Positions 8,877 through 41,179 of a stretch of 51,682 bases of DNA are shown here, piece after piece. Numbering within the stretch: position 1 is the stretch's first letter; every line of letters begins with the position of its first letter. Source of the DNA: a virus (taxonomy: Duplodnaviria; Heunggongvirae; Uroviricota; Caudoviricetes); IMG/VR virus record IMGVR_UViG_2651869781_000017, positions 1-51,682 of that record; one strand, 5' to 3'. A program made the position numbers and the translations under genes. The notes below the pieces were generated by a model that was not told where the DNA came from, searched no databases, and worked only from the letters and a program-made list of their open reading frames with translations.

Positions 8877-9845
8877 TTAGTAGGTTATTTTTGTTGCGAA
8901 TACTTCGCCTTTTACGATGGCTGTTATGATATTTTTAGCAACATCTTCTGATGCGCCAACCTTGATAAGGTCAGCAAGTATTTTGTTATTTACTTCTTTC
9001 CGGTGAGCTTTATCCTTTGCTCTACGCTCTTCTTCTTCCTTGATTCTTTTTTCTTCTGCTATTCTGGCTTGCTCTTTTGCTTCAGCCTCGCGCAGGATTC
9101 GTTCTGCCTCCTCCTGTGCTTTACGGCGTTCTGCTTCAATTGCCGCATGCTTTTCTCTTTCAGCTCGTTCTGCTGCCTCTTTTGCTTCGCGCTGTGCTCG
9201 TTGCTCGGCTTCAATGCGTTCACGCTCTGCACGTTCCGCTGCGGCCTTAGCTTCTGCTTCTCGCCTTGCTGCTGCTTCAATTTCGGCTTTTGCCTTTGCT
9301 TCGGCTTCAGCTCTGGCTTTCTCTTCAGCTTCTCTTTTTAAGCGTTCTTCATGCTCTCGCTTTTCCTGCTCAGCTTTGAGTCTTGCCTCTTCTCTTTGGC
9401 GGTCAAATTCGCGATCCATCAAAATCGCTATTTCATGGTCAGACTCAATTTGCTTTGCGAGAGCTTCAGCTGCTGCCTTAGCTTCTTCTTCGGCTTTAAT
9501 CCGCGCCTGTTCTTCCTCATAATCAGTAAGAGGCTGGCGCGCCTTGGCTTTCAGTTCATCAAGGCGATCACGCACTGTCTTGCGGTTGGCATCAATTAGC
9601 TTTGGAATTTCCTTAAGTTCAGCAACAAGGTCTTTGCCAAGACCATCGAGATATGTTTTCGTCTGCGCAACTTTATACGCCAGAGAAGCGATCTCCTTTC
9701 TGCCCTTTGCCGTTGTGATATCAGGCACAAAGGACATAACTTCACGTTCAACCTTTTGGAGAATTTCTTCAATCTGGTCGGCAGACTGAAATACAGTCAT
9801 TGCATTTGCTTTTTCAATAACAACTAAATCTGTTACTTCACTCAT
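8877..9845 (-). CDS. hypothetical protein with long EA/R/K-rich low-complexity coiled-coil region
   Basis: 322 aa; about 110 residues of AEAKAKAEIEAAARREAEAKAAAERAERER-type repeats; GGAGGA RBS. Confidence 0.5.
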   Translation of the reverse strand: MSEVTDLVVIEKANAMTVFQSADQIEEILQKVEREVMSFVPDITTAKGRKEIASLAYKVAQTKTYLDGLGKDLVAELKEIPKLIDANRKTVRDRLDELKAKARQPLTDYEEEQARIKAEEEAKAAAEALAKQIESDHEIAILMDREFDRQREEARLKAEQEKREHEERLKREAEEKARAEAEAKAKAEIEAAARREAEAKAAAERAERERIEAEQRAQREAKEAAERAEREKHAAIEAERRKAQEEAERILREAEAKEQARIAEEKRIKEEEERRAKDKAHRKEVNNKILADLIKVGASEDVAKNIITAIVKGEVFATKITY

Positions 9846-10724: not shown

Positions 10725-10889
10725 TCAAATAAGTGGTTTGCCGCGAAAATAAATACGTTCCCACCAAGTTCCGTATCTATCTATCCAGTTACACCAATCA
10801 TCGACACTCCATTTTGTTGTGTCGCATTTTGGCAATTGGCATGAATATCTACCTTCTTTGTAAAGTCGGCGTTTGACTTTCTTGAGCAT
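10725..10889 (-). CDS. hypothetical Cys-rich small protein (54 aa)
   Basis: ORF MLKKVKRRLYKEGRYSCQLPKCDTTKWSVDDWCNW... immediately downstream of N. Confidence 0.3.
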   Translation of the reverse strand: MLKKVKRRLYKEGRYSCQLPKCDTTKWSVDDWCNWIDRYGTWWERIYFRGKPLI

Positions 10890-10897
10890 GGCTCACC

Positions 10898-11203
10898 TCA
10901 ATCGTAATAAGCTGGAATTGATTTTCCGCGTCGCTTCTGGCGGCCTGAGCAGGTCACACCCATTTCACTGCGTGGCTTGCGGTAGTAAATACGGTTCTGT
11001 TTACGCTCAACTTCTTCTGCCTTCTTGCAGCGAAGGCTTCCTAGTGATGCTGCTTTGTCTGCTCTGACGCAACCAGAGAGCTTTAGCGCAATTTTTCGCG
11101 CCAGTCGCTGTTCTTGCATTGCCTGCTCACGTTGAGCCTGTCTGCGTGCTCTGCGGCGATTTCTGGCGTTATCGTCAGCCAGATATGTAATGACTACTGC
11201 CAT
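10898..11203 (-). CDS. N: antitermination protein N (P22 gene 24 equivalent)
   Basis: 101 aa; N-terminal arginine-rich motif; C-terminus ...GVTCSGRQKRRGKSIP matches lambda N ...GITCSGRQKIKGKSIP; GGAGG RBS. Confidence 0.85.
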   Translation of the reverse strand: MAVVITYLADDNARNRRRARRQAQREQAMQEQRLARKIALKLSGCVRADKAASLGSLRCKKAEEVERKQNRIYYRKPRSEMGVTCSGRQKRRGKSIPAYYD

Positions 11204-11310
11204 GTTGACCTCCGATGATTGACTTTGGCGGTGACGCGCCGGGTGCTTATCTTCCGGTTGCCGTCGTGCAGCTGCACTTCACGTCACCCCAAAGCCAACT
11301 ACTCTTTGGT

Positions 11311-11352
11311 TCCCGCATTTCGGCGGGACAATCCCATCAATGTTAAAGAGCC
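11311..11352 (-). promoter_or_regulatory. nutL (boxA GGCTCTTTAA plus boxB hairpin)
   Basis: On minus strand boxA-like GCTCTTTAA followed 14 nt later by hairpin TCCCGC-CGAAAT-GCGGGA, identical to the hairpin at nutR. Confidence 0.7.
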
Positions 11353-11399
11353 TGCCAATCTGTTCCGTTTGGCTTCCAGCGTCCTGCTGATGGCTAAAG

Positions 11400-11484
11400 A
11401 ATACTGTAGGTATTTTATTGTGTAAATACCAAAGGTATTTATTTTTGATGAAATAATGATAAACAAATGAATACAAAGGATATT
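11400..11484. promoter_or_regulatory. OL operator cluster (three AATAC-N5-GTATT sites) with pL
   Basis: Palindromes at 11400-11414, 11425-11439 and 11470-11484 (third has one mismatch); same motif as at OR. Confidence 0.65.
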
Positions 11485-11570
11485 TATTTTTTTGCTGTCT
11501 GCTTGTTCAGTGATTTTTATGCGGGATATGTGAAGTGGATCCCGATAGCTATTGCTGCCGGGATTATGGG

Positions 11571-11939
11571 TTAGTCAGCGAAGGTTAAGACGAGAATTAC
11601 CTTAATGATGTCTGCTACAACAGACACGGCCATAGATAAACCAAAGACGATCCAAGCCACAGTGATGTCTTCACTACCATCGTATAGAGTTCCGTAATCA
11701 CTGGTGTAAGGCGTAAATGTCGCGCCTTGATACAATAGGTATAAGCTTGATCCATAGAGGATAAATGCAGATATCCCTTGTATTGCTATGATCACAAGAA
11801 TCATGAAACGAGCTGATCTATGCGCCCAAGCCTGGCTTATTTTTTCTGATAGAGATTTCGCAATAAAAGCATGCGCTAAGCCGTAAATTGTCGAGATTGC
11901 CAACATCCCAAAAAAGCTTGCTATAGCGGTTCCAACCAT
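11571..11939 (-). CDS. small multi-pass membrane protein co-transcribed with cI (rexB-position cargo)
   Basis: About 122 aa from ATG 11939 (129 aa if the TTG at 11960 overlapping the cI stop is used); four hydrophobic segments; AAGGGG RBS. Confidence 0.6.
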   Translation of the reverse strand: MVGTAIASFFGMLAISTIYGLAHAFIAKSLSEKISQAWAHRSARFMILVIIAIQGISAFILYGSSLYLLYQGATFTPYTSDYGTLYDGSEDITVAWIVFGLSMAVSVVADIIKVILVLTFAD

Positions 11940-11956
11940 AAGCGCCCCTTGCGTGA

Positions 11957-12673
11957 TCAAACCAGCCTTAGTTTTGTCTCAATTGCAACGCCTATAATCT
12001 TGCAGTTTCCATTGATTGGCACGAGAGGCCATGCAGGGTTAAGTCCCTTGAGGTATTTATTTCCGCCGTCGATTATCAGCTTCTTGAATGTTGCTTCGTT
12101 AGAGTCAGAAAGTTTTGCTATGACCAAGCTGCCGTTGATCGCCTCCCTTCCGGTATCGAAAAGAACGAATGTTCCCTCTGGAATGCTTAACCCAACCGGT
12201 GCCGTCATTGAATCACCTTCCACTTTAAGCCAGAACGCATTACCTTGAATATGCGCGTCAGACTCAAGCCAAACATCTATGTCTTTAATGGTGTATGGTT
12301 CGCATGCTTCACACCACGAGCCAGCCTGGATACTGCTTAACACCGGATACCTCTTTCCTGCTCTGTATTCCCCTGCATACCTTACGTTGGCATCGCTCTT
12401 AAGGCTTTCTGCCTGTTCTGCAACCTTGGCAGCAATTGACTGGCTAAAATCAGCAATTGAGACTTGCAACAGTCGTGCAAAACCAGATGCAACCTCAACG
12501 TTTAGCGCGTTTCTGCCATTAAGATAATGCCCTACCGCTCCTTGGGTGATACCCAGTTCATCAGCGATTGAGTATTGGGTTATTCCCAATTCTTTCTTTT
12601 TTGACTCATACAAAGCCTTAAGCCGCTTAGCGTCTTCGAGCTGTTCTGTCGTCAGTGATTTTTTATTTTCCAT
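11957..12673 (-). CDS. cI: CI-type prophage repressor (HTH_XRE plus S24 LexA-like peptidase domain)
   Basis: 238 aa; N-terminal HTH (QYSIADELGITQGAVGHYLNG) and C-terminal S24 self-cleavage domain; divergent from cro across operator region. Confidence 0.88.
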   Translation of the reverse strand: MENKKSLTTEQLEDAKRLKALYESKKKELGITQYSIADELGITQGAVGHYLNGRNALNVEVASGFARLLQVSIADFSQSIAAKVAEQAESLKSDANVRYAGEYRAGKRYPVLSSIQAGSWCEACEPYTIKDIDVWLESDAHIQGNAFWLKVEGDSMTAPVGLSIPEGTFVLFDTGREAINGSLVIAKLSDSNEATFKKLIIDGGNKYLKGLNPAWPLVPINGNCKIIGVAIETKLRLV

Positions 12674-12708
12674 AGCTTAATTCTAATAGCTAAGGTACTT
12701 AAACTAAA

Positions 12709-12748
12709 AATACCCTGAGTATTGATTGCTTTGAATACCTGTAGTATT
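12709..12748. promoter_or_regulatory. OR operators (AATAC-N5-GTATT palindromes) with divergent pRM/pR
   Basis: Sites at 12709-12723 and 12734-12748, 25 bp centre to centre, between the cI and cro starts. Confidence 0.7.
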
Positions 12749-12779
12749 CTTTGTTCATGGTTAATAACGGAGAGTGCAT

Positions 12780-12974
12780 ATGATTCGAATGACACTTGCC
12801 GATTACGCCAAAATCCATGGACAGGCTAAAGCAGCCAGTGACTTTGGTGTAATCCAGTGCGCTATCAGCAAGGCCATTCTGGCAGGCCGTAACATCATGG
12901 TTACGGTAAAGCCTGATGGCAGTGTGATTGGAGAGGAAGTTCGTCCTTTCCCAAGCAACAAGAAAAACAAATAG
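12780..12974 (+). CDS. cro: Cro repressor (lambda Cro fold)
   Basis: 64 aa [33 protein letters not shown]...FPSNKK closely parallels lambda Cro; GGAGAG RBS. Confidence 0.85.
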
Positions 12975-12980
12975 TAACAC

Positions 12981-13024
12981 CGCTCTTTAACAGTCATGGT
13001 CCTCATTCCCGCCGAAATGCGGGA
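12981..13024 (+). promoter_or_regulatory. nutR (boxA CGCTCTTTAA plus boxB hairpin)
   Basis: boxA consensus-like CGCTCTTTA followed 16 nt later by TCCCGC-CGAAAT-GCGGGA hairpin; located between cro and cII. Confidence 0.7.
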
Positions 13025-13082
13025 ATACAACGCGCATAAGTTGATGCGCATAACTTCTTATTTGTTAAGGAAATACTTACAT

Positions 13083-13361
13083 ATGCAACTTACAAGTACT
13101 CGCAAGAAAGCGAATGCAATTACAAGCAACATCCTAAATCGAATTGCTGTACGTGGTCAGCGAAAGGTTGCCGACGCGTTAGGGATTAATGAATCGCAAA
13201 TTTCGCGATGGAAAGACAGCTTTATCCCAAAGATGGCCATGCTTCTGGCTGTACTGGAGTGGGGTGTTGAAGACGAGGAGTTGGCGGAACTGGCTAAGAA
13301 AGTAGCCAGAATGCTGACAAAAGAAAAAGCCCCGAAGAACGGCGAATTCTTCGAGGCCTGA
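13083..13361 (+). CDS. cII: CII transcriptional activator
   Basis: 92 aa; ...SQISRWKDSFIPKMAMLLAVLEWGVEDEE... matches lambda CII (SQISRWKRDWIPKFSMLLAVLEWGV); AAGGAA RBS. Confidence 0.85.
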   Translation: MQLTSTRKKANAITSNILNRIAVRGQRKVADALGINESQISRWKDSFIPKMAMLLAVLEWGVEDEELAELAKKVARMLTKEKAPKNGEFFEA

Positions 13362-13395
13362 TGTAGAAAGACTGGATCAATCCACAGGAGTAATT

Positions 13396-14040
13396 ATGAC
13401 ATACGAAAATGACAAATTCCAGGTTCTGAAGAGCATGAAGGTGCCAGATGATTTTAAATCAAATGGCTTTGTTTATGTGCTTTCGAATGAGTGCATGCCA
13501 GGAATTTATAAGATTGGGATGACTAAGCATTCACCAGAAGTTAGGGCTAAAGAAATTTCAGCCTCTACTGGCGTTCCTAAGCCATTTAAGGTGATAGCAG
13601 CCTTTCATTCAAATAATCCCGCATCAGATGAAAAACTCATTCATAAAGCCTTTGCAAAAGAGAGGCTTAGTGATAATCGAGAGTTTTTCAAGCTTGAAGA
13701 TAATGATCTTTCTGAATCTCTAAATGAAATAAGGGCGCTGGTTGGCCCTGAAAGAAATGGCGAGACGGCAGAATACGCAATTTACGACTCATTCATTTCT
13801 TTTCGCCATGAAAATGAGCTTGATCTTAATGAGGAGCTTATAGAGCAAGGTCTGGGTAGTGTAGTTGGTCATCTTCCTGCGGTGAAAAATTTCCTTATTC
13901 GCGCCGGAATTGCTTACGCGAAGCAACTGATAAGCAAATATAACTCATCGATAGTTATTAATACAGATGGCAGTGTGGTGATGGTTAAGTCTCTTGAAGC
14001 CCAATGCTTTGATGCGGAGGTTGGAAATGAGCCTGGCTGA
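13396..14040 (+). CDS. T5orf172-domain (GIY-YIG-like) protein; moron between cII and O
   Basis: 214 aa; N-terminal GFVYVLSNECMPGIYKIGMTKHSPEVRAKEI...REFFKLE matches the T5orf172/GIY-YIG-like signature; AT-rich compared with flanking genes. Confidence 0.6.
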   Translation: MTYENDKFQVLKSMKVPDDFKSNGFVYVLSNECMPGIYKIGMTKHSPEVRAKEISASTGVPKPFKVIAAFHSNNPASDEKLIHKAFAKERLSDNREFFKLEDNDLSESLNEIRALVGPERNGETAEYAIYDSFISFRHENELDLNEELIEQGLGSVVGHLPAVKNFLIRAGIAYAKQLISKYNSSIVINTDGSVVMVKSLEAQCFDAEVGNEPG

Positions 14041-14893
14041 AGTATTTTACCTGCCGAAGAGTGAACCTGTTGAACAGGAGCGAAGAGTGGCTGATATCGA
14101 TGATGGTTACACCAGATTCGCTAACGAGCTGCTGGAAGCTATCGCAAGTGCCGATTTAACCGCTCGCCAGTTGAAAGTTATGCTGGCCTACGTCCGGAAA
14201 ACATATGGATTCAATAAGAAAACAGATCGAATAGCCGATGAGCAAATTGCTCAGTTAACAGGACTGTCAAGGCAGAATGTTAACAAGGCTAAAAAAGAAC
14301 TGATTTCAATGAATTGCCTGTTTATGGATGGAAATCAAATCGGTGTAAACAGTGAGGTATCTGCGTGGCAATTCAGCAAGTGTCTCCAAGTTAGCAACTT
14401 TGTCTCGAAGTTAGAGACAAAAAATGTCTCCAAATTAGAGACACTCAATGTCTCGAAGTTAGAGACACTCAATGTCTCGAAGTTAGAGACACACAAAAGA
14501 CATTCTTTAAAGACAAAAGAAAATATTAATAAACCCCCTATATCCCCCAAAAAAGTTTCTCAGAAGTTCGACCCGCTAGAAACAGAGTTGCCTGATTGGT
14601 TATCAGCAGAAACATGGTTCTCGTGGGTTACCTATCGCAAGGAGATAGGTAAGTCGATCAAGTCTAAGCAAAGTGTCACTCAGGCTATCAACGTTCTAAG
14701 CAGAAGTCTGGAGAAGGGATATACACCTGAAGAAATTATAAACCAGAGCATCGCCAGTGGTTGGCAGGGGATTTTTGAGCCCAAGACTCCAAAGGGGAAA
14801 TCTCAACCGAGGCCGCAGCATCGAGCTATGCAGGAAAACTTTGCCACTAAAGATTACGGACAAACTGAAATGCCTTCATGGGCGCAGGAGTGA
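14027..14893 (+). CDS. O: replication initiator O (lambda O-like)
   Basis: N-terminal domain resembles lambda O (ADIDDGYTRFANELLEA...RQLKVMLAYVRKTYG); ori iterons lie inside the gene, as in lambda. Confidence 0.8.
   Translation: MSLAEVFYLPKSEPVEQERRVADIDDGYTRFANELLEAIASADLTARQLKVMLAYVRKTYGFNKKTDRIADEQIAQLTGLSRQNVNKAKKELISMNCLFMDGNQIGVNSEVSAWQFSKCLQVSNFVSKLETKNVSKLETLNVSKLETLNVSKLETHKRHSLKTKENINKPPISPKKVSQKFDPLETELPDWLSAETWFSWVTYRKEIGKSIKSKQSVTQAINVLSRSLEKGYTPEEIINQSIASGWQGIFEPKTPKGKSQPRPQHRAMQENFATKDYGQTEMPSWAQE
14381..14560 (+). repeat. phage replication origin: five 22-24 bp iterons (TGTCTCGAAGTTAGAGACA...) plus A/T-rich tract inside O
   Basis: Five tandem iterons, each with internal GTCTC..GAGAC dyad, at 14381-14496, followed by an A-rich segment. 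Confidence 0.75.
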
Positions 14894-37075: not shown

Positions 37076-37433
37076 TGCTGTTTTTCTCCCTTAGATACCA
37101 GCTTAACACAACACCTGTGTTGTACTGCATAATGTATCCGCAATGCTTGCAAATTACATGATAAGAGTAATTTATTGGGTTGAATGATTCATCTTCGTTT
37201 TTTATATATTCACCATAATGGGCATGCCTACCCATGATGTCTTTTCCATTATCCTGATTTACAAATTGAACTTGAGGGACAACCATTTCAGACTGCCCGC
37301 ACATTGGGCATTCGTCTGGAACACCTTTAGCTCTCAAGAAAGAGTCGAGAACCTTTGTAGTTATAGACGATAGCGCCTTGCGATATTCAGCCTCTCGCAG
37401 TTGATCGTCTGAGTATCCTGAATTGTCACTCAT
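37068..37433 (-). CDS. zinc-ribbon protein (121 aa; CPMC...CKHC)
   Basis: Two CxxC pairs; ATGA overlap with mnt stop implies translational coupling. Confidence 0.55.
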   Translation of the reverse strand: MSDNSGYSDDQLREAEYRKALSSITTKVLDSFLRAKGVPDECPMCGQSEMVVPQVQFVNQDNGKDIMGRHAHYGEYIKNEDESFNPINYSYHVICKHCGYIMQYNTGVVLSWYLREKNSNV

Positions 37434-37681
37434 TTTTCATCCTTACCATACATGGTCTTTAGCGTCTCAACATCGCGTTCAAGATCTATCAATCGTGATG
37501 CTATAGTTGCAAGGTCTAGTGCTTGAATGTGTTTATTTTTTTCGGTCCACGCTTCAAGTGCCGCGACCATCTCAGCATTTAATGAACGAGAATTAGCCTC
37601 AGCCAGTTCAATAAGACGTTCCTTTATCTCTACAGGAAGCCTCAGATTCACTTGAGGGTTTTTGTACTTACGATCAGACAT
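37430..37681 (-). CDS. mnt: Mnt-like ribbon-helix-helix repressor
   Basis: 83 aa; N-terminal RHH (VNLRLPVEIKERLIELAEANSRSLNAEM) parallels P22 Mnt; divergent from arc-ant. Confidence 0.75.
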   Translation of the reverse strand: MSDRKYKNPQVNLRLPVEIKERLIELAEANSRSLNAEMVAALEAWTEKNKHIQALDLATIASRLIDLERDVETLKTMYGKDEK

Positions 37682-37786: not shown

Positions 37787-37927
37787 ATGAAGGTAAAAAC
37801 ACTGCGTATGCCAGAGAAGCTAGAAAAAATTCTTGAAGAAAAAGCAAAGGAAGAGTGCCGCTCATTCAGCGCAGAAGTAATTAAACGGGTGCTGGACAGC
37901 CTGAGGAGAGAGGGGATAACGGTGTGA
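37787..37927 (+). CDS. arc: Arc-like ribbon-helix-helix repressor (46 aa)
   Basis: MKVKTLRMPEKLEKILEEKAKEECRSFSAEVIKRVL...; small RHH directly upstream of ant. Confidence 0.7.
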   Translation: MKVKTLRMPEKLEKILEEKAKEECRSFSAEVIKRVLDSLRREGITV

Positions 37928-38025
37928 TTCGCTTGGATGCGGCAAAGAAATCAAAACAGTGAAGCCCCAACTGCGGGAACAGTCAGGGCTTCGGTATCGT
38001 AAAACCACGCATAGGAATTAACGAC

Positions 38026-38949
38026 ATGAAAAGTATAGCAACAGCAGTATCTACTATCAATGTACCATTCCACGGCGCAGAGCTTTATGTTGTCAATCAC
38101 AACGGCGAACCGTATACCCCAATGAAACCTATCGTTGAGGGAATGGGGCTAGACTGGAAATCTCAACATAAGAAGATTTCTCAACGCTTCTCGAAGGGTA
38201 TGGTGGAAATCACCATACCTTCTGCCGGTGGGGTGCAAGCCATGATTTGTATGGCTTTACGAAAATTGGCAGCTTGGTTGAACAGCATCAGTCCTAACAA
38301 AGTCCGCCCTGAAATCCGCGACAAGGTAATCCAGTATCAGGAAGAGTGTGACGATGTGCTCTACGACTACTGGACTAAAGGCCATGTAGTTAACCCACGC
38401 AAAGCTAAAAAGGCGTTGCCGGGTAAAATCACCACTGAACAGCAGGAAGCCATTAAACAACTCGTCATGAGTCGCGGTCAGTCTCTGCCAAAAGAAAAAC
38501 AGGCTAAGGCGATGATCACCATGTGGTCGTCACTGAAATCCCATTTTGGATGTTCGTACAAAGAAATCAGTGAGGAGCAGTTTACCGAAGCACTATCACT
38601 TGCAGCTAGAGTTCCACTTGAAGGTGAGTTCATTGGCAAACAAGAGAAGAAAACCAACGAGCTTTCTGCAAAAGAAGCAAACAGCCTTGTATGGTTATGG
38701 GATTATGCCAACCGTTCGCAGGCATTATTCCGCGAACTGTATCCGGCGCTAAAACAAATTCAATCGAACTATTCCGGCAGATGTCATGACTGCGGTTATG
38801 AGTTCTCCCGTATTATCGATATGGCGAGAGATGTTTTAATCAACCATACACGAGATGTTGATATTAATGAGCCAGACGGACCAACGAATCTTTCCGCATG
38901 GATGAGACTTAAGAATAAAGAATTACCTCCTTCAGTACATAACTACTGA
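38026..38949 (+). CDS. ant: antirepressor Ant
   Basis: 307 aa; AntA-type N-terminal domain; immI position downstream of arc. Confidence 0.7.
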   Translation: MKSIATAVSTINVPFHGAELYVVNHNGEPYTPMKPIVEGMGLDWKSQHKKISQRFSKGMVEITIPSAGGVQAMICMALRKLAAWLNSISPNKVRPEIRDKVIQYQEECDDVLYDYWTKGHVVNPRKAKKALPGKITTEQQEAIKQLVMSRGQSLPKEKQAKAMITMWSSLKSHFGCSYKEISEEQFTEALSLAARVPLEGEFIGKQEKKTNELSAKEANSLVWLWDYANRSQALFRELYPALKQIQSNYSGRCHDCGYEFSRIIDMARDVLINHTRDVDINEPDGPTNLSAWMRLKNKELPPSVHNY

Positions 38950-39049: not shown

Positions 39050-41179
39050 ATGACAGATATCACCGCAAATGTTGTGGTAAGCATGCCTTCGCAACTCTTC
39101 ACTATGGCTCGTTCTTTTAAAGCCGTAGCTAATGGCAAAATTTATATCGGAAAAATTGACACTGACCCGGTAAATCCAGGAAACCAGATCCAGGTTTATG
39201 TGGAGAACGAAGATGGCTCTCATGTTCCTGTTTCGCAACCAATCATCATTAACGCTGCCGGATATCCGGTATATAACGGACAGATTGCCAAATTCGTTAC
39301 CGTGCAAGGCCATTCTATGGCTGTTTATGATGCATATGGTGCGCAGCAGTTTTATTTTCCTAATGTGTTGAAGTATGATCCTGATCAGTTTAGTTTGAAG
39401 CTATCCATGCCTGATGGGGCAGGTGAAATTGGATATCAATATAGAAATAATGTTACATCTTCTTACCGAAGAGTAAACGACAAGCTTGATGAGCATGTCA
39501 GTATTCTGGATTTTCATAGAAATGTTGATGGTGGGTTAATCCTTCCTGCACAGAATGTTGATAGTAGACCATTCTTTGAGCGAGCACTTGTATACATTGA
39601 ATCAATAGGCGGTGGCACTATTTATGTACCGGCTGGAAAATACTATTTAAATTCATACAGTGAAATAGGGATCATAGGCACTGTCTTTAATGCAATATTG
39701 CCACTTTGCGATAATGTTAAAATTTTATTGGATACAGCGGCAGAAATAGTTGTCGGTACTTTTTTTGATGACAAGCCTTTCCAGTTGTTTTTTGGTTCTT
39801 CGCCTTTGAAACCAAATCTTGTAGACGCTGTAAATAATGTTGTCATAGAAGGTGGTACAATTAGCTTTAGTGGTTATAGCAGTATGATGAGAACAGCACC
39901 ACTAAACAGAATTGCATTGCAGACAGGAAATATAGATAATCTTCGCATATCAAATGTTACCTTTCGTGATGGTGACTTAACAAACGCTTTAGCGATAGGA
40001 TACAAAAATCTAGGCAAATATGCAGTTGTTGAGAATTGCAACTTTATTGACCTTATTCAGAACGGAATGAATAACGATCATAGTAGTATCTACCTTAATG
40101 CGTCACACTCTACAATTAATAATTGCAACTTTATTTCCACGATAGATAAAGGAAGGAAGATCGCTTGTGCTGTTGAGTTGCATAAATCTTTCAATAGTTG
40201 GATTGGTGGTAATGTTGATGGCTATACACGTGGTGCTTTTATAAACGCTATTGATACTGAATCATCTCTTGTAGAAAACACCAGAATTGAATCAGTTACC
40301 GCTAGAATACTACACCAGTTTGTAGCGTACTCGTTCGGTTCTAATGGGGTTATAAGAAATAGTCTTGTTTCAGGAAATAATGTAACAACTCTTGCGAGAA
40401 GTTCATCCGATACAGATCCTTCAGAATTTGGACCTTGCAGTCTCTGCGGTTGGGTGTCATATGGTAGTTTTGCAAATGCAGAAGGCCTAAATATCGTAGT
40501 TGAAAATAATACATACATTGTTGATGAATCAGTACAAGATTCATATAGTTGCGTATTTTATGCAATCGCAAATGTTTCAGGTGTTACTGTTCGTAGAAAC
40601 AGTGTTGGAGCGAGAACTTTTTTCTACAACCCAACCCCATCACTAAATCTTTACAATTGCCATTTTTATGAAAACAGGTTTGAGGAATCGTATGTACAGA
40701 GCGGTTCAGAAAGATTTTTATATGATCTTAACTGTAATCGTATTTCTCAAAGCACTTTCGAAGCATTTGTTCCAATAAAAACAACTGCACTGACAGGAGT
40801 TATGAGGATTGACCCATCTACGCTCGGTCCGCAGAATCGTTTTGTTGTCGATACTCAGAATACAGATAATATTGAACACCCATTTATTACAAATTTGCCA
40901 GGTTTGCTCGGGCAGGATGGTACAACTTACTCATATCCGCAAAAATGCGATGTCAACATCGGAGTTGGTTCTACACCTGTCCTATCTGTGATAAGTCCGG
41001 AAATAAGCACTGTAGACAGAGGACAGATTCTTAACAACGCGAACCTTCCATCTGGTTATGTCGCTCCGTCGTCGTTAATGAAGTACGATTCTACGCTTAC
41101 AGGAGCTGGTGTCACAGTATCAGGGACGCCATCCGGTAATTATCATGACGTGAGGATTCTACTGATAAGAGAACGTTAG
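39050..41179 (+). CDS. tailspike protein (P22-type N-terminal head-binding domain plus distinct receptor-binding domain)
   Basis: N-terminal 110 aa [34 protein letters not shown]...VLKYDPDQ matches P22 gp9 head-binding domain; rest diverges. Confidence 0.88.

Follow-up and report, generated by a model that had tools for sequence, protein, structure and literature searches.

The 51,682-nucleotide (nt) stretch of DNA analysed here, the whole of IMG/VR virus record IMGVR_UViG_2651869781_000017 and hereafter called the window, contains around positions 11400 to 12748 a lambda-like control region with the repressor gene cI, the divergent cro gene and their left (OL) and right (OR) operators, flanked by the antitermination gene N and two nut sites. 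Most likely, and we hold this with high confidence, it is the immC (cI-cro) region of an apparently intact P22-like Escherichia coli prophage with the immunity specificity of coliphage HK620, and it works as in lambda. The immunity type is already known: it was sequenced and annotated with HK620 in 2001 and reportedly published in that year by Clark, Inwood, Cloutier and Dhillon (J Mol Biol 311:657). From the sequence alone, the first-pass annotation had described a natural specificity-swap variant of the lambda switch, with the proviso that identity to a characterised immunity type would make it known rather than wrong. Comparison with sequenced lambdoid phages led to exactly this outcome. 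Operator, Cro and CI helix, boxB and N arginine-rich motif (ARM) sequences are all non-lambda, and the specificity-swap reading is therefore right but not new, because the region is essentially identical to the HK620 immunity type. Recognition surfaces and targets that differ from those of lambda are the classical definition of a heteroimmune lambdoid phage.

When phage records were searched by megablast, window positions 11012-13400 were 99.1% identical at the nucleotide level to HK620 (AF335538) and HK630, and the same module was present at 97.7-99% identity in mEpX2 (99%), HK140, HZ41, two phages derived from enterohaemorrhagic E. coli and two Stx2c phages. Window and HK620 differ at 22 positions over 2389 base pairs (bp). 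The OR-cro-nutR stretch (441 bp) is 100% identical, whereas the nutL-OL stretch shows four differences in 301 bp, one of them within the OL2 spacer. At the protein level Cro and CII are identical to their HK620 counterparts, CI differs by T66A only, which lies outside helix 3, and HkaS by V20G only. OR1-3 and OL1 are identical to the HK620 operators, OL2 carries the single spacer change, and boxA and boxB of nutL are the same in both phages. Judged by the DNA-binding sequences of CI and Cro and by the operators, the region thus belongs to the HK620 immunity type. The HK620 GenBank record (AF335538, Clark et al. 2001) annotates OL1-3, OR1-3, pL, pR, nutL, nutR, tIMM, tR1 and pRE. At least 80% of the module was found in 146 of 5426 complete E. 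coli genomes. The related phage mEpX2 has been placed in an immunity group of its own, separate from lambda, HK022, phi80 and others, and double and triple lysogens of mEpX2 with lambda were constructed (PMC3442831).

The genes and regulatory sites at the centre of the region are:

hkaS, 11571-11939, minus strand: 122-residue hydrophobic small membrane protein, annotated in HK620; PHROG 6534, unknown function
cI, 11957-12673, minus strand: 238 residues; N-terminal helix-turn-helix with helix 3 QGAVGHYLNG, C-terminal LexA-like S24 domain
cro, 12780-12974, plus strand: 64 residues, lambda fold; DNA identical to HK620 cro
pL promoter, 11398-11426, minus strand: TTTACA, 17-nt spacer, TATTCT; coincides with HK620 pL
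OL1, 11399-11415, unstranded: gAATACTGTAGGTATTt; exact motif, HK620 annotation, 21.2 bits
OL2, 11424-11440, unstranded: aAATACCAAAGGTATTt; 25 bp from OL1, 23.3 bits; spacer differs from HK620 at 11431
probable OL3, 11469-11485, unstranded: gAATACAAAGGATATTt; one mismatch, 45 bp from OL2, overlapping HK620 tIMM; 13.1 bits
OR3 (weak), 12684-12700, unstranded: tAATAGCTAAGGTACTt, read as AATAG-CTAAG-GTACT; HK620 annotation; 24 bp from OR2
OR2, 12708-12724, unstranded: aAATACCCTGAGTATTg; exact motif, HK620 annotation, 24.3 bits
OR1, 12733-12749, unstranded: gAATACCTGTAGTATTc; 25 bp from OR2; exact motif, HK620 annotation, 20.5 bits
pR promoter, 12722-12750, plus strand: TTGATT, 17-nt spacer, TATTCT; mapped from the HK620 annotation and by sequence reading

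The first-pass annotation had read the operators as AATAC-N5-GTATT palindromes, not lambda operator sequences, with three sites in OL and two clear ones in OR. The palindromes themselves were confirmed, and the count for OR had to be raised to three, the third site being the weak OR3. The 51.7 kb window contains five exact copies of ATAC-N5-GTAT, all of them within 11401-12747; four of these are OL1, OL2, OR2 and OR1 and the fifth lies inside hkaS. For scoring, a weight matrix was derived from 99 distinct sites of other loci; as these had been chosen as perfect pairs, the matrix is biased towards the core bases. With this matrix, the four exact operator sites and 11469-11485 took the top five scores of the window (24.3 down to 13.1 bits), and the next best position reached 8.0 bits. 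The exact copy in hkaS (11730-11742) was considered as an extra operator and set aside as probably fortuitous, although an auxiliary weak site is conceivable. At half-site position 2 the A/T of the operators is missing on both sides (GATAC...GTATA), the score is only -2.4 bits, and about one exact 8-base match is expected by chance in 51.7 kb. A further copy of the motif, with one mismatch, lies inside hkaS at 11771-11783.

Both early promoters are covered by these operators. In a promoter scan pL was the only sigma-70-like match in 10800-13500; OL1 covers its spacer and -10 element and OL2 overlaps its -35 element. The pR promoter matches at 8 of 12 positions, which is under the threshold of the scan, and is overlapped by OR1 and OR2. 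The arrangement typical of lambdoid phages, in which operators overlap both early promoters and OL forms a second cluster upstream of N, is thus present, and the divergent cI and cro genes flank an OR with three sites in a 106-bp intergenic region. A pRM promoter can be read at OR3, with a putative -10 element TAGAAT that ends 6 nt before the cI ATG; OR3 would lie over the spacer of this promoter, beside its -10 element. Given the distance of 6 nt, the cI transcript would be leaderless, as in lambda.

The claim that Cro is closely lambda-like in sequence held. The window protein is 63% identical to lambda Cro over 60 residues without gaps, it falls into the Pfam family Cro (PF09048; 91.3 bits against a cutoff of 32.7), and its top match among solved structures is lambda Cro. 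The recognition helix aligned as claimed and differs from the QSAINKAIHA of lambda. In the published ‘evolutionary code’ of Cro proteins, Gln at helix position H1 is paired with A at +2 of the half-site, Ala at H3 with A at +5 and Lys at H6 with C at +6 (PMC6649833). The window Cro has Q, A and K at H1, H3 and H6, and its half-site nAATAC supplies A2, A5 and C6, in agreement with these pairings; the same residues and bases are shared with lambda. In contrast, base pairs 3 and 4 of the half-site differ from lambda (nAATAC versus TATCAC), and so do H2 (Cys versus Ser), H5 (Ser versus Asn) and H9 (Leu versus His) of the helix. In Cro proteins of relatives, H2 may be Thr and H9 may be Arg. The Cro proteins of Stx2a phages (61% identical, helix QSAISKALL) were considered as a case of the same specificity and rejected, as their OR sites are lambda-like (TATCAC/TAACAC) and not AATAC. 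Because these proteins, with Ser at both H2 and H5, adjoin lambda-like ATCAC/AACAC sites, H2 is more likely to be the position that reads base pairs 3 and 4.

CI is 43% identical to lambda CI over its full length and matches the Pfam families HTH_3 and Peptidase_S24 (84.6 bits). Its QAG, GDSMT and FKKL motifs align with the lambda repressor, where we take them to correspond to A111-G112, S149 and K192; at the level of sequence motifs (Ala-Gly site, Ser/Lys dyad) the protein has what RecA-dependent self-cleavage requires. Helix 3 reads QGAVGHY, as compared with QSGVGAL in lambda. The hkaS gene lies between cI and OL, in place of lambda rexAB, and is probably co-transcribed with cI. No Pfam family was matched significantly by its product, which is presumably made in the lysogen and may have an exclusion or lysogenic-conversion function.

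To see how widely the operators occur, viral contigs and species-representative genomes were scanned for two AATAC-N5-GTATT sites 10 bp apart. The pair was found in at least 119 viral contigs and in 29 species genomes. The viral scan yielded 53 distinct cI-cro intergenic regions, in which CI is 46-100% and Cro 44-100% identical to the window proteins. In most of these regions three OR sites lie at the same distances from the cI start, and a third site with one or two mismatches stands at the position of OR3 in most of the listed regions, while some show OR1 and OR2 only. Helix 3 of CI is constant, QG(A/G)VGHYLNG, with the exception of a one-residue variant, HYMNG, in one lineage (L060/L048); the Cro helix follows the pattern Q(C/T)AISKA(I/V/L)(L/R). 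The hosts include Tatumella, Pectobacterium, Providencia, Kluyvera, Photorhabdus, Pantoea, Phytobacter, Siccibacter, Lelliottia and Enterobacter, and the motif is also found in Serratia phage OS31. As read from these sequences, many genera keep the operator motif unchanged even as identity in CI and Cro falls to about 45-50%. In three Pseudomonas species, CI-like repressors with PGAVGHWLNG stand beside the same site pair. The CI-like repressors of the Pseudomonas loci L132, L151, L152 and L154 are 31-43% identical to the window CI, and no lambda-type Cro was detected in these four loci. The specificity class may extend beyond Enterobacterales.

The third OL site is the point at which the window and the HK620 annotation part. 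In the HK620 record OL3 is placed 22 bp from OL2, which corresponds to window 11446-11462, and the terminator tIMM spans the stretch of 11469-11485. On motif score 11446-11462 was rejected as OL3, since it reaches only -32.7 bits, whereas 11469-11485 is the fifth-best site of the window. Among 109 distinct pair regions, 68 carry, at one of a few discrete offsets (+21, +28-30 or +44/45), a third site that deviates from the motif in no more than one position, compared with 0.6% when the flanks were shuffled. A site at +45 recurs in lineages whose CI is 47-88% identical to that of the window and whose spacers differ, and in two of them, L010 and L029, it is perfect. The OL1-OL2 spacing is always 25 bp in the relatives, yet this spacing was itself a selection criterion. 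We consider it rather probable that 11469-11485 is a functional OL3, possibly doubling as part of the terminator, and the OL3 placement in the HK620 reference annotation is probably wrong and merits correction.

Alternatively, 11469-11485 would belong to the cI-hkaS terminator tIMM or to a conserved AT-rich element and would not be an operator, with OL being bipartite or having its third site elsewhere. HK620's own authors annotated tIMM across this stretch and put OL3 closer to OL2, the segment ...GGAATTTATTTTT is partly conserved even where the third motif copy is at +21 or +30, and a spacing of 45 bp is unlike the 20 bp of lambda. The missing motif at the annotated OL3, the discrete offsets that shuffled flanks rarely reproduce and the varying spacers of the +45 sites, two of them perfect palindromes, speak for an operator instead, and we regard the alternative as somewhat unlikely. 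An AT-rich element, ...GG(A/T)ATTTATTTTT..., is kept about 45-60 bp beyond OL2 (window 11486-11500) in L006, L018, L020, L103 and others. It is conserved with or without an operator-like palindrome and may be a terminator, a bend or a host-factor site. If 11469-11485 is indeed OL3, the published HK620 OL3 would be misplaced and one element would serve both as operator and as terminator of the cI transcript.

The N gene and the nut sites are:

N, 10898-11203, minus strand: 101 residues; HK620-type arginine-rich motif at about residues 10-27, middle and C-terminus phage-21/lambda-like
nutL, 11311-11352, minus strand: boxA GGCTCTTTAACA (11352 to 11341), 12-nt spacer, boxB UCCCGC-CGAAAU-GCGGGA (11328 to 11311); HK620 nutL maps here
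nutR, 12981-13026, plus strand: boxA CGCTCTTTAACA (12981-12992), spacer, boxB AUUCCCGC-CGAAAU-GCGGGAAU (13005-13026); identical to HK620 nutR

The first gene of the pL operon encodes N, a small protein with its arginine-rich motif towards the N-terminal end, which matches PHROG 271 (‘anti-termination protein N-like’) with E=6e-36. Over residues 1-64 its identity to N of HK620, HK630, mEp213 and HK140 is 95-98%, over residues 37-97 it shares 88.5% identity with phage 21 N, and the C-terminal 33 residues, 64% identical to lambda N, are the sole part that resembles the lambda protein. The divergence of the arginine-rich motif from lambda, which the first-pass annotation had pointed out, is therefore real; the arm reads NARNRRRARRQAQREQ here and TAKSRYKARRAELIAERR in phage 21. 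Over its full length N is 97% identical to N of phage HF4s. Of the lambda-like N circuitry proposed at first, the presence of an N/nut system stood, whereas N and the pL leader proved to be phage-21-like rather than lambda-like.

As had been noted, nutL and nutR share an identical boxB with a 6-bp stem. The 18-nt boxB string TCCCGCCGAAATGCGGGA occurs exactly twice in the window, at 11311-11328 (minus strand) and 13007-13024 (plus strand), where 0.01 copies are expected by chance, so that the pL and pR transcripts carry the same boxB. It folds into a hairpin with the 6-nt loop CGAAAU on a 6-bp stem in nutL, and in nutR the stem extends to 8 bp (AUUCCCGC/GCGGGAAU). By sequence reading, the boxA before each boxB is near-consensus, (C/G)GCTCTTTAACA. 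No Rfam family matched the nut sites; the sole Rfam matches in the window were the tRNA and the sar RNA described below. Just after the nutR boxB, at 13033-13050, comes a second hairpin, GCGCAT-AAGTTG-ATGCGC, with a T-rich stretch behind it; this hairpin is possibly tR1 or contributes to an alternative nut structure. In the few related loci viewed, nutR likewise has a similar hairpin, GCGCAT-loop-ATGCGC, after it.

Among the fetched loci, a boxB with CGAAAT loop is always accompanied by an NARNRRRA(R/K)R arm, in 29 loci that include one otherwise diverged N; this is a co-occurrence only. Where the same operators are combined with a boxB of the lambda, P22 or another type, the arm is the corresponding other one. 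Because the same operators occur with differing boxB/arm pairs, the N/nut and cI/cro/operator modules reassort independently, as is expected for lambdoid mosaics. On these sequences, the N/nut system is best described as phage-21-like with a swapped ARM/boxB pair. The boxB is not of the phage 21 type, which has a CUAACC hexaloop: the loop here is CGAAAU and the stem differs. The loop length is the same and the architecture possibly so, whereas the specificity class appears to be a different one. The phage 21 loop C-UAAC-C has been described as a core of four bases resembling GNRA, with a C-C pair on its flanks (PMC12550061), and by analogy the loop C-GAAA-U can be read as such a core. It may even represent a genuine GNRA tetraloop with C-U as the closing pair, and would then be akin to the phage 21 complex without being the same. 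A structure of the phage 21 N-peptide-boxB complex exists (PDB 1NYB), whereas neither structure nor binding data for the pair in the window were found in the searchable literature. The text of PMC3526286 gives no boxB sequence of H-19B for comparison. Two modest proposals, that the N arm and the C-GAAA-U boxB could represent a fourth mode of N-peptide/boxB recognition and that the true OL3 could be the +45 palindrome acting as a dual-function element, are put forward tentatively, and taken together we consider them somewhat unlikely.

Taken together, the region would be expected to work as follows. CI dimers would bind the 17-bp operators (consensus nAATAC-N5-GTATTn), presumably cooperatively, and at OR1/OR2 and OL1/OL2 they would shut off pR and pL. 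At OR2, CI probably stimulates the leaderless pRM transcript that would carry cI and hkaS, and the weaker OR3, probably together with the third OL site at 11469-11485, would provide autoregulation. Upon RecA-stimulated self-cleavage of CI, pL and pR would fire. Cro, with the alpha+beta fold and the 17-bp geometry of lambda Cro, would bind the same operators and turn down pRM and the early promoters. N made from pL would bind with its arginine-rich N-terminus to the boxB hairpins, with their CGAAAU loops, of the two nut transcripts and, together with boxA and the host Nus factors, would render RNA polymerase resistant to terminators. The differences from lambda, in operator base pairs 3 and 4, in Cro H2, H5 and H9, in CI helix 3, in the N arm and in loop and stem of boxB, would together result in heteroimmunity to lambda and in a nut specificity of its own for N.

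The surrounding DNA is that of a P22-like prophage, in which the virion genes show about 95% identity to CUS-3, Huey and Sf101 and the early region forms a mosaic with HZ41, N7, HK140 and mEpX2. The window, a chromosomal prophage, could in principle be a decayed remnant with a non-functional switch, and many prophages are defective; nothing specific in the window favours this. The genes of the control region are all intact and hardly differ from their counterparts in HK620, HK630 and mEpX2, which are viable phages, and the P22-like early, replication, virion and tailspike genes beside a tRNA-Thr gene amount to about 38 kb, all of which makes decay very unlikely.

Some observations weigh against a lambda-type switch of HK620 specificity. 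OR3 is a poor match to the motif, with two mismatches and 0.3 bits (rank 18 of 51.7k positions). The surveyed loci were selected for a perfect pair, and the conservation of those two sites is partly circular; the selection did not extend to where the sites lie, to the third site or to the linkage with the helices. The 45-bp spacing of the third OL site is unusual, the site overlaps tIMM, and the AT-rich segment in which it lies is partly conserved even in lineages with their third site at another position. The HK620 N has a different, H-19B-like tail, and because the C-termini differ, the window N is a recombinant. Finally, no binding, footprinting or antitermination data for CI, Cro or N of the HK620 type were found in the searchable literature, with the original HK620 paper and Hall et al. 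2005/2011 outside reach. Although this scarcity of biochemical data would also leave room for true operators of some other sequence, with the AATAC-N5-GTATT palindromes being incidental, we consider that extremely unlikely, as the palindromes cluster over pL and pR, hold their sequence and position while flanking DNA and proteins diverge, and fit the correlations between Cro helix and half-site. An HK620-type immC region thus remains our interpretation.

Further features of the window are:

tRNA-Thr (anticodon CGT), 1369-1444: left end of the phage-like DNA
cII, 13083-13361, plus strand: 92 residues; Pfam Phage_CII (PF05269), 143 bits
oop-like terminator, 13359 to 13327, strand opposite to cII: terminator-like site in the scan
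Mnt-like ribbon-helix-helix open reading frame (ORF), 37430-37681, minus strand: immI region
Arc-like ORF, 37787-37927, plus strand: immI region
sar antisense RNA, 37958-38024, minus strand: Rfam RF00262, 76.6 bits; between the arc-like and ant-like genes
antirepressor (Ant)-like ORF, 38026-38949, plus strand: 307 residues, just upstream of the tailspike gene (39050-41179)

The tRNA-Thr gene at 1369-1444 is the likely integration site, which we take to be of the thrW type, as for P22-like phages. The immI cluster indicates that the prophage probably has a P22-style bipartite immunity on top of its HK620-type immC, and it may act on the HK620-type CI. Between cII and O, an ORF for 214 residues (13396-14040) with T5orf172/MUG113 (GIY-YIG-like) domains looks like an inserted accessory gene. 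The following O-like ORF (13994-14893) contains four tandem copies of (N)VSKLET(L/K/H), at about 14400-14520, which derive from direct DNA repeats. By analogy with lambda O and with HK620, where a rep_origin is annotated inside O, these repeats are probably replication-origin iterons. In the early-left operon, an ORF for 322 residues (8877-9845) has a long, highly charged, Glu/Ala/Lys/Arg-rich and coiled-coil-like middle part.

That repressor/operator and N/boxB modules co-vary in heteroimmune lambdoid phages has been textbook knowledge since the 1970s-80s, and the exact module has been out with HK620 since 2001. As a discovery the region therefore carries little weight. What is new is confined to three points: OL3 is probably misplaced in the reference, the operator/helix family is broad, and the N/boxB pair is phage-21-like. 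The value lies in a well-populated natural series for the study of protein-DNA co-evolution, for example for an extension of the Cro code to H2 and base pairs 3 and 4, and the family is a possible source of orthogonal repressor/operator and N/boxB parts.

Compared with HK620, the window has the T5orf172/MUG113 gene after cII in place of hkaW, a C-terminal third of N that is phage-21/lambda-like instead of H-19B-like, and a full mnt-arc-sar-ant immI region, whereas ant of HK620 was described as degraded in a published comparison (PMC2629481). The OL3 of the HK620 record sits at a position without operator motif. P22 is matched by the virion genes and by the immI-like cluster with its sar RNA; however, the immC has a lambda-fold Cro and HK620-type operators and not the c2/cro genes and operators of P22. 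With phage 21 the window shares a pL leader that is nearly identical through boxA and a boxB loop of 6 nt, but the boxB itself reads TCCCGC-CGAAAT-GCGGGA as opposed to TCTCAAC-CTAACC-GTTGAGA. The likeness to lambda lies in the gene order, the overlap of promoters and operators, the 17-bp operators centred on a base pair and the fold of Cro, while the spacing of the OL sites (25 and 45 bp versus 24 and 20 bp), the replacement of rexAB by hkaS and the much weaker OR3 set the two switches apart.

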